Positions 3,010 through 13,752 of a stretch of DNA of 64,000 bases are shown in pieces (position 1 is the first letter of the stretch; every line of letters starts with the position of its first letter). Made by a program: the position numbers and the translations under genes. Under the pieces are notes generated by a model. That model made no database searches and was not told the DNA's origin. It saw only the letters and a list, made by a program, of their open reading frames with translations. The stretch comes from a phage, in the NCBI GenBank assembly GCA_024790105.1, contig GCA_024790105.1_3053.1. One strand, 5' to 3'.

Positions 3010-4597
<1,588 letters not shown>

Positions 4598-4624
4598 AAT
4601 AAAATGGGCCTTGCGGCCCACTCC

Positions 4625-5127
4625 TTAAAAGTATTTTTTAAAACTCATCATAACTTTATCATCAACATCATTATCAATCTGTGCAACAAGGTAAGATGAC
4701 AGTTCTACTTCTTGTGGCGCGGATTGAACATTATCAGAATTAAGGTATTCACGAATCCAAGGATATGGATGTTTAACCGGAGCATCGGTAATCGGGCATG
4801 GAAGACCGCACTGTTTCATACGAGACACAGTCAAGTAATCAATAAAGCTCCACATGCTATTTGTATTTAATCCAGGAACATCACCATCTTTAAATAAATG
4901 AACTGCCCAATCTTTTTCTTGGCGGTTAACTTCCATGAAAATATCAACTGCTTCTTGTTCACACTCTTGAGCAATTTTAACCCATTCATCACTATCAGTA
5001 CCAGATTGAAGTTGACGAATAATATATTGGGTGCCTTTAAGGTGAAGCTGCTCATCACGTGCAATGAACTTCATAATCTTGGCATTACCTTCCATGATTT
5101 CCATGTTCTTATGGAAGTTAAAGGTAC
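4625..5127 (-). CDS. nrdB: ribonucleotide reductase small subunit, exon 2
   Basis: C-terminal R2 sequence (MEGNAKIMKFIARDEQLH...) in frame from the inferred 3' splice site after an intron-terminal G at 5128. Confidence 0.8.
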
Positions 5128-5694
5128 CGTTATGTTCGATTGAGCTCGCTAATTCTCAACCCGTTCTCTTATGAACTGCTACATATTACTATGCAGACCA
5201 GACTATATCACAATCCCAGAGGGATTCTCCCCATTTCGAGTCGCTTGACCCTACGTCCGAAGACTAGTCGTTGAACCTTGCTTTGCAATTGTCGCCGTGC
5301 CATCGTTTATATGTTGATGGTGATAAATCTTTCTTATCACAATATGGACAATTCAATTGAATTCTATTTGGATTTAATTTACATCTGTCATTATGTTTTA
5401 GATAAAATCCAGAACCTTTACCAATGTGACCGCAGAAATCGCATGTGATTTCTTTTTGTGCAGGATGGGTCCCGTTCTTAACCATTTCTAATGTTTTTGC
5501 TGATGTCTTTTCTTATGGTCTTCCATCAGAATCTTTAGGTATAGTTCAATTGTGCATCCTCTTAAAAGTATAATCATATTTATGTTATACTAATTAAAAG
5601 TGCAAGCAAAACCTTGGCTGCTAGTTTTCCTATAAAGGACTTTCCAGCAATTAAAGGAGTTTTCGATAAACGTTACCGTTTAAAGGCGCATTTT
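5128..5694 (-). mobile_element. group I self-splicing intron in nrdB (boundaries approximate)
   Basis: interrupts conserved R2 sequence between FYVSFA and FNFHKNMEIMEG; exon 1 ends in U; intron ends ...GAACAUAACG, closely similar to the td intron 3' end ...GAACAUAAUG; carries a degenerate ORF. Confidence 0.75.
5264..5485 (-). CDS. intron-encoded ORF, probable truncated homing endonuclease remnant (I-TevIII-like zinc-finger region)
   Basis: 73-aa ORF inside the nrdB intron with CxxC...C and CxxC cysteine clusters; no HNH catalytic motif present. Confidence 0.45.
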   Translation of the reverse strand: MVKNGTHPAQKEITCDFCGHIGKGSGFYLKHNDRCKLNPNRIQLNCPYCDKKDLSPSTYKRWHGDNCKARFND

Positions 5695-6370
5695 ACGCAA
5701 AAGATACATAAAAACGAATAGCTTCTAAGGCATTAATAACGTGTAAACAGAGGTAAAGAGACTTCATTAAAGCACGTTTAGCTTCGGCTTCTTGTTTAAT
5801 AGCTCGGTTTAAACGAAAGTCGGCATCAGGAGATTCTTTAGCTAGTTCTACAAATTCTTTAGCATTTTCCCAATAACGAGTTTTAATCAGAACATCATCA
5901 TAATAGCGACCGATAGATTCAGCACGTTTCATGATAGCTTCGTCTAATACAATCTCGTCAAATACCTTAGCAGGGTCATTGAACAAGTTACGCATGATAT
6001 GAGTATATGAACGACTATGAATAGTTTCACTAAAAGTCCATGTAGCAACCCATGTATCAAGGCTTGGGTCTGAAAGCAATGGCATAAGTATCGCAGATGG
6101 TGCACGCCCCTGGATGGAGTCTAACAATGACTGGTATTTTAAGTTATTGATAAATATAGATTTTTGATGTTCTGGGAGCTTGTTAAATTGTGCAGCATCC
6201 ATCATCAAGTTTACTTCTTCAGGACGCCAGAAAAATGATAAAGATTTCTCAATAAGTTCTTCAAATACTCGATGCCGTTGAATATCATAACGCGCAATAC
6301 CAAGACCTGAACCAAAAAACATGGGTTCTTTTAAAACATCAACTGGATTTGTATTAAAAACTGTGCTCAT
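5695..6370 (-). CDS. nrdB: ribonucleotide reductase small subunit, exon 1
   Basis: N-terminal R2 sequence ending ...EAIRFYVSFA; ORF stop lies inside intron sequence. Confidence 0.8.
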
Positions 6371-6421
6371 AAATTTTCCGCTTAGTTAATAGTTGGTGAC
6401 TCGTCCGTGAGTCAAATTATA

Positions 6422-7411
6422 TCATAATTTACAGGATGAACAATCTTCAGCTTTTGGAGTTTCTATTTCGTAATCATCAGTGCCAGAACCATCACGGGTA
6501 TTATGATAATAGAAATTTTTAATGCCATAATACCATCCGTATAGCATGTCATCAATCATTATTGACATTGGAACCTTTCCTTTTGGAAAAATCTGCGGGT
6601 CATAGTATGTATTCGCTGAAGCTGATTGACATACCCATTTCAGCATAATAGCTACTTGCGTAAGATAAGGTTTATTACCTTTCTTAGCTAATTTCCATGT
6701 ATAATCATAGAGGTCTATGTTATGCTCAATATTGGGCACGACTTGATTAAAGGAGCCCTCTTTTGATTCTTTAACAGAGACTGGTCCACGTGGAGGCTCG
6801 ATACCGTTTGTACTGTTAGAAACTTGGGAAGATGACTCACATGGCATAAGTGCTGATAATGTGCTATTACGGATGCCAAATAGCTTAAGGTCTTCCCGCA
6901 GCGCCGACCAGTCACAAACGTATTTTGGAGCTGCGATTTGGTCAATCTTTTTATTGTACCAGTCGATAGGTAATTCGCCTCGAGACCAACGAGTGTCTGA
7001 ATAATATTCGCAAGGTCCTTTTTCTTTGGCGAGCTTAATGGATGCTTTAATGAGTCCATACTGTAATCTCTCAAATAGTTCATGTGTTAAATCGTTAGCA
7101 TCTTCATAAGAAGCAAAGTTACTTGCCAGCCAAGCTGCATAGTTAGTAACACCTACACCAAGGTTACGACGCTTTTTAGCTTTTTCTGCTTCAGGAACTG
7201 GATATCCTTGGTAATCCAAAAGATTATCAAGAGCACGAACTTGAACTTCTGCTAATTCATTAATTTTATCTTGGTCTTGCCAGTCAAAATTGTCTAATAC
7301 GAATGCAGAGAGAGTACAAAGGCCCACTTCACCTTTGTTTTCAATAACTTGTATTGTTGTATACTCATCATCTTCGTAAAATTCATCTACAAATTCATAA
7401 TCAATATTCAT
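6422..7411 (-). CDS. nrdA: ribonucleotide reductase large subunit, C-terminal fragment (NrdA-b)
   Basis: 329 aa with own ATG; from GEVGLCTLSAF onward matches class Ia R1 C-terminal half, ending with the CSSCKL cysteine tail. Confidence 0.85.
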   Translation of the reverse strand: MNIDYEFVDEFYEDDEYTTIQVIENKGEVGLCTLSAFVLDNFDWQDQDKINELAEVQVRALDNLLDYQGYPVPEAEKAKKRRNLGVGVTNYAAWLASNFASYEDANDLTHELFERLQYGLIKASIKLAKEKGPCEYYSDTRWSRGELPIDWYNKKIDQIAAPKYVCDWSALREDLKLFGIRNSTLSALMPCESSSQVSNSTNGIEPPRGPVSVKESKEGSFNQVVPNIEHNIDLYDYTWKLAKKGNKPYLTQVAIMLKWVCQSASANTYYDPQIFPKGKVPMSIMIDDMLYGWYYGIKNFYYHNTRDGSGTDDYEIETPKAEDCSSCKL

Positions 7412-8111
7412 TTAATTCTTCTACCTTTTTTCGAGATATTCCTAGAGCTTTAGATGCTCGATGTATTGATTGATATTCTATACCGTTTATTTTTACAGCA
7501 ATTAAGTTATGGGGTTTTAATCCCTTTGGATGAGGTTTACTGACGTATTCTTGATTATCGTTTTCAGAGATATTATCAAGCTTTCGACACTTAAAGCCTT
7601 TATGTTGAGACCTTTTGCCTTTGCATACGGCCGACATTGCCGAAGCATTGAGTGAATGTAGTTCGCAAAATTCTCTTAGGCCTTTATGGATTTCTTCATG
7701 ACCGTCCGGGAAAGTAAATACCCAAGTTGTTTGAAGTTTTTCTCTATGCTCGTCAGTTGCCGGAATACCTTTGTTCCAAGCTGGTTTGCCTTTATTATTT
7801 TCAGATACAGAAATAGCCAATTTTCTTCTAAGCCACCCATGGCGTTTATTGGTGTTCTTTCGTTCAATATTATCTTCAGAATAAACACACATCATATTAG
7901 CGGCAAATACCAATTTATGATTATCTGGATATATCTTTACTAATAATTGATGAGCTATGTAATGCTCTTCGGGTGTCAAATCTACCAGGTTTTCCTTTGT
8001 ATCAGAACCACCAATACACAGAGGTATAATATGGTGTGATTCGGTATAGCAATCTAATTTTCTGTTCTTAGCTTTAGAAATAAGGTTATTGTAAATTTTA
8101 GAATAATCCAT
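7401..8111 (-). CDS. HNH homing endonuclease, Mob family (mobE-like), inserted within nrdA
   Basis: 236 aa; HNH motif HHIIPLCIGGSDTKENLVDLTPEEHYIAH; N-terminus MDYSKIYNNLI paralogous to mobA N-terminus; AGGA RBS; stop overlaps NrdA-b start. Confidence 0.85.
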   Translation of the reverse strand: MDYSKIYNNLISKAKNRKLDCYTESHHIIPLCIGGSDTKENLVDLTPEEHYIAHQLLVKIYPDNHKLVFAANMMCVYSEDNIERKNTNKRHGWLRRKLAISVSENNKGKPAWNKGIPATDEHREKLQTTWVFTFPDGHEEIHKGLREFCELHSLNASAMSAVCKGKRSQHKGFKCRKLDNISENDNQEYVSKPHPKGLKPHNLIAVKINGIEYQSIHRASKALGISRKKVEELNEY

Positions 8112-8156
8112 AACTTTTCCTCTTGTTATGGATTATTTATTAACGGTCTGTGTACT

Positions 8157-9590
8157 TTATTTGCTTTGAATTATACCGCCAGGATTAGCTTCATAAAACT
8201 TAGCTACATCCGACTTCTTAATTTTGATTAAACGGGTTTGTTGGCTATTCACATCATTTGTTGGAATAGCAATTTCACAGCACAAGTTACTCTGACGAAT
8301 TGGAGCTTTTTCACGAATAAACGGAGTGTAGTTATTCGTATTATCAATGAACTGTACATAAATCCTTGCTGTTCCTGAGCGTTCAGTCATGAGCAATTCA
8401 AATAGTTCACGGGCTTTAATACGCTTTTTGCGAATATTAGGGTCTTTTTCTGCTGCTTCGTATAATTCACGGAAACGGTCTTGGTCTTTAAAATAAGAAT
8501 AATAAAGCTCTCCACCCATTTCATGCGGACTGAACAAAGTAATGTAATCGTTCTTTCCGAATCGTTCCATCATTAGGTCATTCAGCTGGACGCCATAATC
8601 CATATGACGAATGCGGTTTTCTTCTACACCTTTGTTATTTTTCAAAACGAGAAGATTTTCAACTTCCAAATGCCAAATAGGATAATAAGCAGTAGCAGCG
8701 CCGCCACGAATTCCACCCTGTGAGCATGATTTAACAGCAGTCTGAAAATGTTTCCAAAAAGGAATAACACCAGTATGACGTACTTCACCCGTACCAATCT
8801 TAGAACCTTCGGCACGAATCATACCAACGTTAATACCAATTCCAGCGCGTTTAGAGATATATTCAACAATTGAAGCGGAAGCCTTATTGATAGACTTTAA
8901 TGAATCACCTGCCTCAATAACAACACATGAACTAAACTGTCGAGTCGGAGTACGACAACCAGCCATAATAGGAGTTGGTAATGAAATCTGTCGAGTAGAT
9001 ACTGCTTCATAAAAACGGATAACGTGTTTTAATCTATCAACAGGTTCATCTTGATGCAATGCCATTCCGATAGTCATAAATGCAAACTGTGGAGTTTCAT
9101 AAATTTGACCAGTGGTTTTATCTTTAACTAGATATTTTTCTTTTAATTGCATCGCCCCGGAATAAGTAAATTCCATATCCCGCTCGTGCTTAATTTTTGA
9201 TTCTAAAAATGTAATTTCTTCTGCTGAATATTTTGACAATAATTCAGGGTCATATTTACCTTCATTTACACAATAAGAAATATGGTCAATAAATGAACGT
9301 GGTTCATACTGCCCATAAACATGCTTACGAAGAGCAAACATTAAACAGCGTGCAGCTACATATTGATAATCAGGCTCTTCAACTGAAATAGAATTCGCAG
9401 CAGCCTTAATTACAATGGTTTGAATGTCATCAGTGGTCATTCCATCACGGAGATATGATTTAATATTTTCATATAATTCATAAGGATCTACAGATGTTCC
9501 TTCAGCTGCCCAAGATAAAACTTTAATAATTTTTTGCGGGTCAAAGCTTTGAGAAACACCACTACTTTTGATAACATTAATTAATTGCAT
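8157..9590 (-). CDS. nrdA: ribonucleotide reductase large subunit, N-terminal fragment (NrdA-a)
   Basis: 477 aa from MQLINVIKSSG (AGAGGA RBS); ATP-cone and catalytic region through SNLCCEIAIPTNDVNS, then 28 unrelated codons and a stop. Confidence 0.85.
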   Translation of the reverse strand: MQLINVIKSSGVSQSFDPQKIIKVLSWAAEGTSVDPYELYENIKSYLRDGMTTDDIQTIVIKAAANSISVEEPDYQYVAARCLMFALRKHVYGQYEPRSFIDHISYCVNEGKYDPELLSKYSAEEITFLESKIKHERDMEFTYSGAMQLKEKYLVKDKTTGQIYETPQFAFMTIGMALHQDEPVDRLKHVIRFYEAVSTRQISLPTPIMAGCRTPTRQFSSCVVIEAGDSLKSINKASASIVEYISKRAGIGINVGMIRAEGSKIGTGEVRHTGVIPFWKHFQTAVKSCSQGGIRGGAATAYYPIWHLEVENLLVLKNNKGVEENRIRHMDYGVQLNDLMMERFGKNDYITLFSPHEMGGELYYSYFKDQDRFRELYEAAEKDPNIRKKRIKARELFELLMTERSGTARIYVQFIDNTNNYTPFIREKAPIRQSNLCCEIAIPTNDVNSQQTRLIKIKKSDVAKFYEANPGGIIQSK

Positions 9591-9615: not shown

Positions 9616-9623
9616 TATAAATA
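9616..9623 (+). promoter_or_regulatory. T4-type late promoter TATAAATA
   Basis: exact TATAAATA 22 nt upstream of the GIY-YIG ORF ATG, followed by an AGGAGA RBS. Confidence 0.7.
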
Positions 9624-9645: not shown

Positions 9646-10377
9646 ATGAAATCTGGAATATATGCTATTATAAACACTAAAACTAATAAGCACTATATAG
9701 GAAGTGCAATTAATTTTGAAGAACGATGGAAACGACACTTTAAAGATTTAGATAATGGAAATCATCATTCAATAAAGCTGCAGCGTTCTTATAATAAGCA
9801 TGGTAAAGATGCTTTCGTATGTAAAATCATAGAAGAACTTCCATACGAAAAATCTATCATTATTGAACGTGAAAATTATTGGATGCATGAATATGACTCA
9901 AAGGAAAATGGGTATAATATAGCAGACGCATCGTTTGGGGATACCTTATCTCATCACCCAAGAAAGCAAGAAATCCTTAATAAAATTTCAAATGCAATTA
10001 AAAATAATAATTCAAAATTATCACCAGAAGAACTTAAGCAAAAACATGGTAGACCTAGAGACATCAAAGGTAAAACTATAGAAGAACACTATGGGTTAGA
10101 TCGTGCTATAGAAATAAGCAAAAAGTTCCAAGAAAGAAACGCTGCACTTAATATGAAAGGCATCAATAATCCATATTACGGTCAGACGCATACCAATGAA
10201 GTTAGAAAACGAATTTCTGACTCACAGAGAGGTAAAAAGAAACCCCATCTAAGAGTAAGTATAGATGGGGTAGAATATCCAACAATAGCAGAAGCTGTGC
10301 GTCAAACCGGAATAAGCAGAAAACTTATATCTAAAAGATGTGCTCTAGATTGCTGGGAATCATATTTATACTGCTAA
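9646..10377 (+). CDS. free-standing GIY-YIG homing endonuclease, I-TevI paralog
   Basis: 243 aa; N-terminal ~100 aa about 70% identical to the I-TevI catalytic domain encoded at 11094-11831 (MKSGIY...YIGSA...RWKRHFKDL...NGYNIADA); different C-terminal DNA-binding region. Confidence 0.85.
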
Positions 10378-10946: not shown

Positions 10947-11962
10947 CATTATGTTCAGATAAGGTCGTTAATCTTACCCCGGAATTATATCCAGCTGCAT
11001 GTCACCATGCAGATCAGACTATATCTCCAACTTGTTAAAGCAAGTTGTCTATCGTTTCGAGCCACTTGACCCTACTCCCCAAAGGGATAGTCGTTAGGCA
11101 TTTATGTAGAACCAATTCCATTTATCAGATTTTACACGATAAGTAACTAATCCAGACGAAATTTTAAAATGTCTAGCTGCATCTGCTGCACAATCAAAAA
11201 TAACCCCATCACATGAAATCTTTTTAATATTACTAGGCTTTTTACCTTTCATCTTTTCTGATATTTTAGATTTAGTTATGTCTGAATGCTTATGATTAAA
11301 GAATGAATTATTTTCACCTGAACGATTTCTGCATTTACTACAAGTATAAGCAGAAGTTTGTATGCGAACACCGCACTTACAAAACTTATGGGTTTCTGGA
11401 TTCCAACGCCCGTTTTTACTTCCGGGTTTACTGTAAAGAGCTTTCCGACCATCAGGTCCAAGTTTAAGCATCTTAGCTTTAACAGTTTCAGAACGTTTCT
11501 TAATAATTTCTTCTTTTAATGGATGCGTAGAACATGTATCACCAAACGTTGCATCAGCAATATTGTATCCATTAATTTTAGAATTAAGCTCTTTAATCCA
11601 AAAATTTTCTCGTTCAATAATCAAATCTTTCTCATATGGAATTTCTTCCAAAATAGAACATTCAAACACATTACCATGTTTGTTAAAAGACCTCTGAAGC
11701 TTTATAGAAGAATGACATCCTTTTTCTAAATCTTTAAAATGCCTCTTCCATCTCTTTTCAAAATCTTTAGCACTTCCTACATATACTTTATTGTTTAAAG
11801 TATTTTTAATCTGATAAATTCCGCTTTTCATAAATACCTCTTTAAATATAGAAGTATTTATTAAAGGGCAGTCCTACAATTTAGCACGGGATTGTCTACT
11901 AGAGAGGTTCCCCGTTTAGATAGATTACAAGTATAAGTCACCTTATACTCAGGCCTAAATTA
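10947..11962 (-). mobile_element. td group I self-splicing intron (1016 nt)
   Basis: 5' end UAAUUUAGGCCUGAGUAUAAGGUGACUUAUACUUG... and 3' end ...AACAUAAUG recognised as the T4 td intron; exon 1 ends in U, intron ends in G. Confidence 0.9.
11094..11831 (-). CDS. intron-encoded GIY-YIG homing endonuclease I-TevI
   Basis: 245 aa, MKSGIYQIKNTLNNKVYVGSA...; recognised as I-TevI; lies wholly inside the td intron. Confidence 0.9.
   Translation of the reverse strand: MKSGIYQIKNTLNNKVYVGSAKDFEKRWKRHFKDLEKGCHSSIKLQRSFNKHGNVFECSILEEIPYEKDLIIERENFWIKELNSKINGYNIADATFGDTCSTHPLKEEIIKKRSETVKAKMLKLGPDGRKALYSKPGSKNGRWNPETHKFCKCGVRIQTSAYTCSKCRNRSGENNSFFNHKHSDITKSKISEKMKGKKPSNIKKISCDGVIFDCAADAARHFKISSGLVTYRVKSDKWNWFYINA

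Positions 11963-12555: not shown

Positions 12556-13752
<1,197 letters not shown>

Follow-up and report, generated by a model that had tools for sequence, protein, structure and literature searches.

The nrdB gene of the phage DNA analysed in this study, a stretch of 64,000 nucleotides that we refer to as the window, is interrupted on its minus strand by a segment of 567 nt, and the locus raises the question of what this segment is, whether it is removed from the transcript, and what has become of the endonuclease gene of which it keeps a part. Our analysis identifies it, almost certainly, as the self-splicing group I intron of T4-family nrdB genes, in a form that combines an RB3-type ribozyme with a further decayed version of the I-TevIII gene bearing the T4-type deletion. 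The nrdB intron is an already known element, and like the decay of its endonuclease, it belongs to the textbook account of the selfish-intron life cycle; the exact 567-nt allele is slightly new, one step further on a known path of decay, and it matters little beyond that.

The nrdB locus and the boundaries of its intron

The genomic context is that of a T4-like phage (Tequatrovirus), in which the minus-strand genes rnlA (3010-4170), denA (4187-4621), nrdB (4625-6370), nrdA, td and frd follow one another in the same order as in T4. The phage collection held no close match to the window, the best one being 95-96% identical over approximately 90% of the first 20 kb. Exon 1 of nrdB (6370..5695, minus strand, 676 nt), delimited from the list of open reading frames and its translation, is 96-98% identical to T4-family nrdB and ends in TTT GCG T, that is, in the codons for FYVSFA followed by the initial base of a Cys codon. 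The intron occupies 5694..5128 of the minus strand, starting with AAAATGCGCC (also given as AAAAUGCGCC) and finishing with GAACATAACG, whose terminal base is the G at 5128; exon 2 (5127..4625, minus strand, 503 nt including the stop codon) opens with GT ACC TTT AAC TTC CAT AAG. The assignment of the intron to the T4/RB3 nrdB type rests on the alignment of alleles from T4, RB3, Manna, PD112 and other phages, on the spliced junction and on the Rfam model RF00028.

Joined in silico, the two exons encode a NrdB of 392 aa that reads FYVSFA-C-TFNFHKNMEIMEG across the junction and aligns with T4 NrdB from end to end, a variable stretch of exon 1 accounting for a net 4 extra residues. A 300-nt segment spanning this in-silico junction was compared with the intronless nrdB genes of RB32, RB33, ECML-134, NBG2 and other phages and produced a single ungapped alignment with 97% identity, so that removal of the segment restores the host gene, as is characteristic of group I introns. 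Because the spliced junction is contiguous in the intronless alleles, the boundaries of the intron are exact to the base, and it is these alleles that place the terminal guanosine at 5128. A first-pass annotation, made from the sequence alone, had proposed that the conserved R2 sequence is broken after FYVSFA, with exon 1 ending in U and the intron ending in G; translation of the minus strand and the intronless junction confirm both points, the U being at 5695 and the G at 5128. It had also proposed a length of 567 nt with approximate boundaries, of which the length is real, while the boundaries proved to be exact by the alignment with intronless alleles. The alignment with the T4 and RB3 nrdB introns, which it had recommended, confirmed this length. 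An intein, a group II intron and a frameshift were also considered as the cause of the interruption, and they were rejected on account of the group I core and of the spliced junction, which is exactly that of the intronless genes.

In public annotations, among them those of ESh36, PD112 and other phage records, each nrdB exon is often a 'ribonucleotide reductase' gene of its own, and the intron either has its dead I-TevIII remnant named a 'homing endonuclease' or is occupied by short antisense ORFs called 'hypothetical proteins'. The nrdB of this phage is best annotated as one spliced gene, with neither a division into two fragments nor a separate 'homing endonuclease'.

The ribozyme core

Positions within the intron are given below as nt, the window coordinate being 5695 minus the intron position. 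A scan of the whole window with Rfam at gathering thresholds gave no match, since the ORF insertions of the nrdB and td introns leave both phage introns under the threshold, which for RF00028 is 50 bits. Below it, RF00028 matches the minus strand at 5179-5419 with 37.1 bits (E = 1.2e-7 for the local search and 7.5e-6 for the whole window). The score is this low because the ORF remnant (~320 nt) in the loop of P6a breaks the alignment: its 3' half (J6/7, P7, P3', P8, P7' and P9) is correct, and its 5' half is a spurious alignment to the ORF; the actual 5' half of the ribozyme is located at 5604-5694. The intron of PD112, which has no ORF, reaches 68.6 bits (E = 2e-17) with a full P1-P9 alignment, and where both introns have sequence, nt 96 and 111 are the sole positions at which it departs from ours. 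Over the core (nt 1-91 and 412-567), identity with RB3 and with PD112 is 100%. The initial assignment to the group I introns is supported by the RF00028 match of the window, which is beyond chance although under the gathering threshold, and by this closely related intron.

Failure of the segment to fold into the P3-P9 core helices had been named beforehand as a reason to abandon the intron reading; a check by script found all core helices fully paired, as is every helix from P2 to P9.2. The internal guide sequence GCGC (nt 6-9; 5686..5689, minus strand), read from the sequence, forms P1 with the exon GCGU that ends in U5695 through the pairs U-G, G-C, C-G and G-C, the first of which is the wobble between the terminal U of exon 1 and intron G6. 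P2 is the hairpin UAAACG-GUAA-CGUUUA (nt 13-28, with 13-18 paired to 23-28 around a GUAA loop; 5667..5682, minus strand; 6/6 pairs), located through the Rfam alignment of PD112. The 5' strand of P3, CUCCUU (nt 36-41; 5654..5659, minus strand), was likewise found from the Rfam alignment and pairs with GGGGAG at nt 463-468 (6/6 pairs). These two helices correct the first-pass annotation, which had taken UUUAAACGG for a P3-like element and considered P2 absent: that string (nt 11-19) belongs to the P2 hairpin, of which it forms the 5' strand and the loop, P3 lies further on, and P2 of the td intron has the same position. P4 (nt 45-51/71-77, 7/7 pairs) and P5 (nt 56-59/64-67, 4/4 pairs) follow at 5618..5650 on the minus strand, and the 5' strands of P6 and P6a (nt 77-79 and 86-91; 5604..5618, minus strand) pair with nt 418-420 and 412-417, respectively, enclosing the ORF region as a loop.

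The 3' half of the catalytic core (5201..5283, minus strand), with its helices fully paired, comprises P6a'/P6' (nt 412-420) followed by J6/7, P7 (nt 426-430, paired with P7' at nt 490-494), P7.1 (nt 431-440, GUC-UUCG-GAC), P7.2 (nt 444-457, GGGUC-AAGC-GACUC), P3' (nt 463-468) and P8 (nt 469-483, with 469-474 paired to 478-483) followed by J8/7. The peripheral 3' helices (5139..5196, minus strand) are P9 (nt 499-516, with 499-505 paired to 510-516 around a GUAA loop), P9.1 (nt 519-532) and P9.2 (nt 535-556). The core of a group I intron is thereby complete, with P3-P8, the guanosine-binding helix P7, J6/7 and J8/7 all in place, and GGUUCAACGACUA and GAUAUAGUCU fit the RF00028 consensus. Subgroup IA2 is defined by additional helices, namely P7.1 and P7.2, which lie between P7 and P3', and P9.1 and P9.2; all four are present here and have counterparts in td, and we take the nrdB intron to be a member of this subgroup together with the other T4 phage introns td and nrdD.

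Natural variation touches the helices as well. In P9, T4 and the window differ by a compensatory change from G-C to A-U and by a change from G-C to G-U, and G50A in phage F26 turns a G-U pair of P4 into A-U. The minimum-energy fold of the whole intron, obtained by a method in which the P3/P7 pseudoknot cannot appear, surpasses those of shuffled sequences by a modest margin only (z = -2.3), and it recovers P2, P4-P5, P8, P9, P9.1 and P9.2. This modest margin and the sub-threshold RF00028 score count against the ribozyme reading, as does the shortness of P1, with only 4 bp, and of P10, with about 2 bp.

We also observed that the two bases before the terminal G (AC, nt 565-566; 5129-5130) are complementary to GU at nt 497-498 (5197-5198) in the segment that joins P7' to P9. 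In the td intron, the AU before the terminal G (10948-10949) is likewise complementary to an AU in the corresponding joining segment. Such complementarity between joining segment and tail is as expected for a P9.0 pairing, and T4 and Manna alter both sites together (U498A plus the loss of one A of the tail).

Relationship with the td intron

The window contains a second group I intron, that of td (11962..10947, minus strand, 1016 nt), with an intact I-TevI gene at 11094-11831. The 3' tail of the nrdB intron, GAACAUAACG including the terminal G (5128..5137, minus strand), agrees with the td tail, GAACAUAAUG (10956..10947), at 9/10 positions, just as the near match of the last 10 nt had been described in the first reading of the sequence. 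The motif GAACATAAYG occurs on both strands of the 64 kb at exactly 2 sites, 5128-5137 and 10947-10956, which are the 3' ends of the two introns, with 0.34 matches expected by chance in a window of this size. The tail string first proposed is the RB3 form, the T4 nrdB tail being without one A. Over their 3' parts the nrdB and td introns are identical at 110/156 aligned positions, which are arranged in conserved blocks.

The architecture of the two introns is paralogous: both have P2, P7.1, P7.2, P9.1 and P9.2 and an ORF looped from the P6 region, and they have in common the blocks AACGACUA, GUAGGGUCAAG, GAUAUAGUCUG and GAACAUAA-G. The td intron differs in its host gene, in its helix sequences and in its intact GIY-YIG endonuclease. 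It forms the same set of helices with different sequences in P2, P3, P4, P7.1, P8 and P9.2, differences that, in a comparison made helix by helix, amount to natural covariation between paralogues. The RF00028 score of the td intron is 42.6 bits, below gathering owing to its ORF. At the P1 position of td exon 1 the window has an A-U pair, where T4 td presumably has G-U.

The I-TevIII remnant and its expression signals

The ORF enclosed by P6/P6a (5264..5485, minus strand, 73 aa) corresponds to residues 197-269 of I-TevIII, with 72/73 residues identical to those of RB3. It matches PHROG 12324 at positions 197-269 and PHROG 27406, the T4-type 97-aa family, at positions 25-97, and a Pfam search with it gave no match. 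It has been reported that the zinc fingers of I-TevIII, with the motif CX2CX12-13HX3C, are its DNA-binding and dimerisation part (PMC1865063); a motif count found both of them in the 73-aa ORF, as is proper to the C-terminal part of I-TevIII. The catalytic domain is absent, Pfam HNH_3 covering residues 4-48 of RB3 I-TevIII, a segment that is deleted in the window. The 73-aa ORF is, by its sequence, a remnant and not a member enzyme. It had been described from the start as zinc-finger-like and lacking HNH, which the identity with I-TevIII residues 197-269 and the HNH deletion bear out, and as probably a defunct endonuclease, which is supported by the loss of the HNH domain, the start codon and the late promoter.

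The decay of the gene can be followed through its lesions. The largest is the T4-type deletion of 491 nt that removed the HNH catalytic domain; its junction (5523..5524, minus strand), where GATTCTGATG is joined to GAAGACC, is common to T4, Manna, F26, FL12, ESh36 and others, and all decayed alleles but PD112 share it as GATTCTGATG followed by GAAGA. According to previous reports, this deletion is what made I-TevIII of T4 defective (PMC2988022, PMC2790892). The second is a deletion of 32 nt with its junction inside the direct repeat CTATA (5540..5544, minus strand), after which the original frame stops after 4 codons (TTG AAC TAT ACC TAA) and which also takes out the ATG of the 97-aa ORF of T4. 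The third, a deletion of 1 nt (AAAAG-ACATC, in AAAAGAACATC; 5506..5507, minus strand) that is also present in ESh36, frameshifts the T4-type 97-aa frame.

The signals that govern expression have eroded in part. A hairpin that sequesters the ribosome-binding site of I-TevIII is preserved (5550..5603, minus strand; z = -3.2), with -13.8 kcal/mol in the window vs -14.9 kcal/mol in RB3. Of the elements contained in it, the Shine-Dalgarno sequence (AAGAGGA, 5557-5563, minus strand) and the TTG at which I-TevIII originally started (5547-5549, minus strand) survive as well. The late promoter TATAAATA, present in RB3 and T4, is absent from the nrdB intron of the window, where the hairpin has CATAAATA in its place (5577-5584, minus strand); the role of this hairpin and promoter in I-TevIII has been reported (PMC2988022). 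With the promoter mutated and the Shine-Dalgarno-linked TTG frame ending after 4 codons, the set of signals proper to I-TevIII expression is no longer complete. The last codons of the ORF (~20 nt) and its UAG stop overlap P6a', P6', J6/7 and P7, and it is because of this overlap that the ORF-less intron of PD112 keeps the 3' stretch of the ORF.

Alleles of the nrdB intron

The intron of the window is 97-99% identical to the nrdB introns of T4-family phages, and about 125 records of the phage collection carry it. Its length varies from 1091 nt in RB3, with the full 269-aa I-TevIII, through 599 nt in Manna, 598 nt in T4, 596 nt in T4_583L (a lab mutant clone), 595 nt in Lv5cm, 592 nt in F26 and G8, 591 nt in 215Ecol030PP, 590 nt in FL12 and 587 nt in ESh36 to the 567 nt of the window and the 304 nt of PD112, which has no ORF; RB33 is intronless (0 nt). 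The decay series of 1091, 599, 587 or 567, 304 and 0 nt is one in which erosion affects the endonuclease gene and its expression signals and leaves the ribozyme unchanged. The search for related loci with the 73-aa ORF returned only one close relative, phage G8; its other matches were distant zinc fingers with 31-67% identity (92% over one 12-residue piece), useless for a census of alleles. Searches of 50,697 phage records, IMG/VR and the JGI metagenomes gave no match to the exact junction of the 32-nt deletion, and as a positive control a query with the T4-type junction found one IMG/VR contig.

The T4 intron (NC_000866, 598 nt) is approximately 98% identical to that of the window and has the same insertion site, helices and 491-nt deletion junction. 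The window lacks 32 nt of it, including the ATG of the 97-aa ORF, and differs from T4 in the 1-nt frameshift, in the mutated late promoter, in having no adjacent mobE and in its RB3-type bases in L5, L8, J7/9, P9 and the 3' tail (AUAACG vs AU-ACG in T4). The difference of 567 vs 598 nt is due to real extra deletions in the allele of the window: relative to T4 there are -32 (between the CTATA direct repeats), -1, +1 in L5 and +1 in the 3' tail, a net change of -31 nt, and the two insertions correspond to the RB3 state. The core of the RB3 intron (KM606994, 1091 nt) is base for base that of the window, and across all the sequence that both have there are 4 substitutions (nt 96, 111, 254 and 282), which together with the deletions all fall within nt 92-411 and none in the core. 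RB3 differs in encoding a 269-aa HNH and zinc-finger endonuclease with an intact late promoter and a working start, and its intron is mobile (PMC1865063). The closest allele is that of the Shigella phage ESh36 (ON528746, 587 nt), which also combines an RB3-type ribozyme with the T4-type deletion and shares with the window the change from TATAAATA to CATAAATA and the 1-nt deletion; unlike the window, it is without the 32-nt deletion and the substitutions at nt 96, 254 and 282, and it has a 12-nt in-frame deletion of its own in the remnant ORF. In PD112 (vB_vPM_PD112, MH837626, 304 nt) the ribozyme is the same, but the whole ORF has been lost between ACAATTG direct repeats and no zinc-finger remnant is left.

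Probable splicing and persistence of the intron

Guanosine-dependent self-splicing of the T4 intron was reportedly established in primary papers of 1986. For the window, the RNA once transcribed would fold into P1 to P9.2, and free guanosine would attack the phosphate after U5695 of exon 1, which P1 keeps in place through its U-G wobble with intron G6; the 3' end of exon 1 thus released would then attack after the terminal G at 5128, joining the exons. Ligation would create the Cys codon UGU and yield an intact NrdB of 392 aa, the expected junction of the ligated exons being UUUGCGU followed directly by GUACCUUU. That the intron of the window actually splices is what we infer, as probable, from the identity of its core with those of introns reported to do so. 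The ORF looped out of P6a was formerly the HNH homing endonuclease I-TevIII, dead here through the 491-nt loss of HNH, the 32-nt and 1-nt deletions and the promoter change, with only 73 C-terminal codons left open. Previous studies have reported that the RB3 intron is mobile and that I-TevIII of T4 is defunct (PMC1865063, PMC2790892, PMC2988022). The intron of the window is unable to home alone, and it would persist by vertical inheritance, possibly also through co-conversion by neighbouring endonucleases.

Other explanations of the locus differ in what they ask of the intron and of its remnant. It is highly improbable that nrdB is not spliced at all, being either a pseudogene or a two-piece gene like the nrdA of the same window. 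Exon 1 does read directly into a TAA stop (5695-5693), an ATG-initiated ORF (4625-5104) spans most of exon 2, and nrdA in the window is truly split with no intron signal; however, the exon-2 ORF alone would be without the conserved CTFNFHKN segment, nrdB shows neither the tails nor the translational coupling of the nrdA split, the complete group I core remains 100% identical to RB3 while the ORF part gathers changes, and the homologous introns of T4 and RB3 are known to splice. More is to be said for a self-splicing intron that still spreads in trans, although we consider it rather unlikely. The MobE-like HNH gene inserted in nrdA would cut or nick endonuclease-free phages, and repair would co-convert the intron, much as MobE of T4 mobilises its defunct nrdB intron in trans (PMC2790892). 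The candidate gene (7401-8111) lies ~1.6 kb upstream, its N-terminus being 49% identical to RB3 MobE, and the nrdA insertion and the nrdB intron are found together in Manna, F26, FL23, FL44, vB_EcoM_112 and fPS-2, an association that shared ancestry would confound; co-conversion, moreover, drops with distance (PMC2790892).

A reading related to trans-homing by the MobE-like HNH concerns the remnant itself, whose two-zinc-finger domain may have been domesticated, so that selection would maintain the production of a dimeric DNA-binding protein of 73 aa, which might, for example, repress an operator-like site or bind intronless nrdB target DNA; we regard this as improbable. Both zinc fingers are intact in 9/9 sampled alleles with the T4-type deletion, and there are at least 8 small indels in the ~150 nt upstream of the zinc-finger part compared with 1, in frame, in its 202 nt, a skew for which a post hoc estimate gives P of about 0.007 under uniform spread. 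In addition, the near-identical fragment 194C has been reported to dimerise in vitro and to bind two zinc ions (PMC1865063), and I-TevIII has been proposed to have an operator that overlaps its late promoter (PMC2988022). The intact fingers with indels upstream could reflect selection on a mini-protein or mutational hot spots, given that the indel bias could stem from homopolymers and short repeats and that the final ~20 nt also have to serve the ribozyme; substitutions, at approximately 3 synonymous to 3 non-synonymous, are too few to test. The ATG at 5485 has no Shine-Dalgarno before it, the late promoter carries a mutation in the window and is lost in 7/10 decayed alleles, and the start codon varies among alleles (ORFs of 97, 88, 87, 73 and 69 aa), a loss of promoter and start that argues against expression of the remnant. 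Finger 1 in the window, furthermore, carries a Pro-to-Ser change, and PD112-type alleles have the zinc-finger region wholly deleted.

The split nrdA gene and other neighbours

The window also contains other departures from the T4 arrangement. Only 51 nt (6371-6421) separate nrdA from nrdB, with no mobE in between; in T4 this place is taken by mobE and nrdB.1 (approximately 700 nt), through which its intron is mobilised in trans, and both are missing here. The nrdA gene is split in two (8157-9590 and 6422-7411, minus strand) by an insertion of 924 nt (7319-8242, minus strand) that replaces 20 nt of T4 nrdA, contains the gene for the 236-aa HNH endonuclease (7401-8111, minus strand) and is common to 35 phage records. 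Both fragments are extended, the N-fragment by a tail of 28 aa and the C-fragment by a head of ~29 aa, with the ATG of the latter overlapping the end of the HNH gene. The split falls between the equivalents of the active-site Cys residues C439 and C462 of E. coli, the C462 equivalent being Cys-32 in the window vs Cys-31 in NrdA-b of Aeh1, whose 'genes-in-pieces' reductase has this same arrangement (PMC3045599). A group I intron was tried as an explanation for the nrdA interruption and gave no signal at E <= 1, so that a split gene is favoured instead.

Between nrdA and td, a GIY-YIG endonuclease of 243 aa, similar to I-TevI, is encoded on the plus strand (9646-10377), opposite to all its neighbours. 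It stands in the place of nrdA.1 of T4, is common to 9 phage records and has an exact T4 late-promoter motif, TATAAATA, 23 nt upstream (9616-9623, plus strand). Finally, an ORF of 119 aa (PHROG 1928; 12556-12915, minus strand) lies between frd and td, which in T4 overlap directly.
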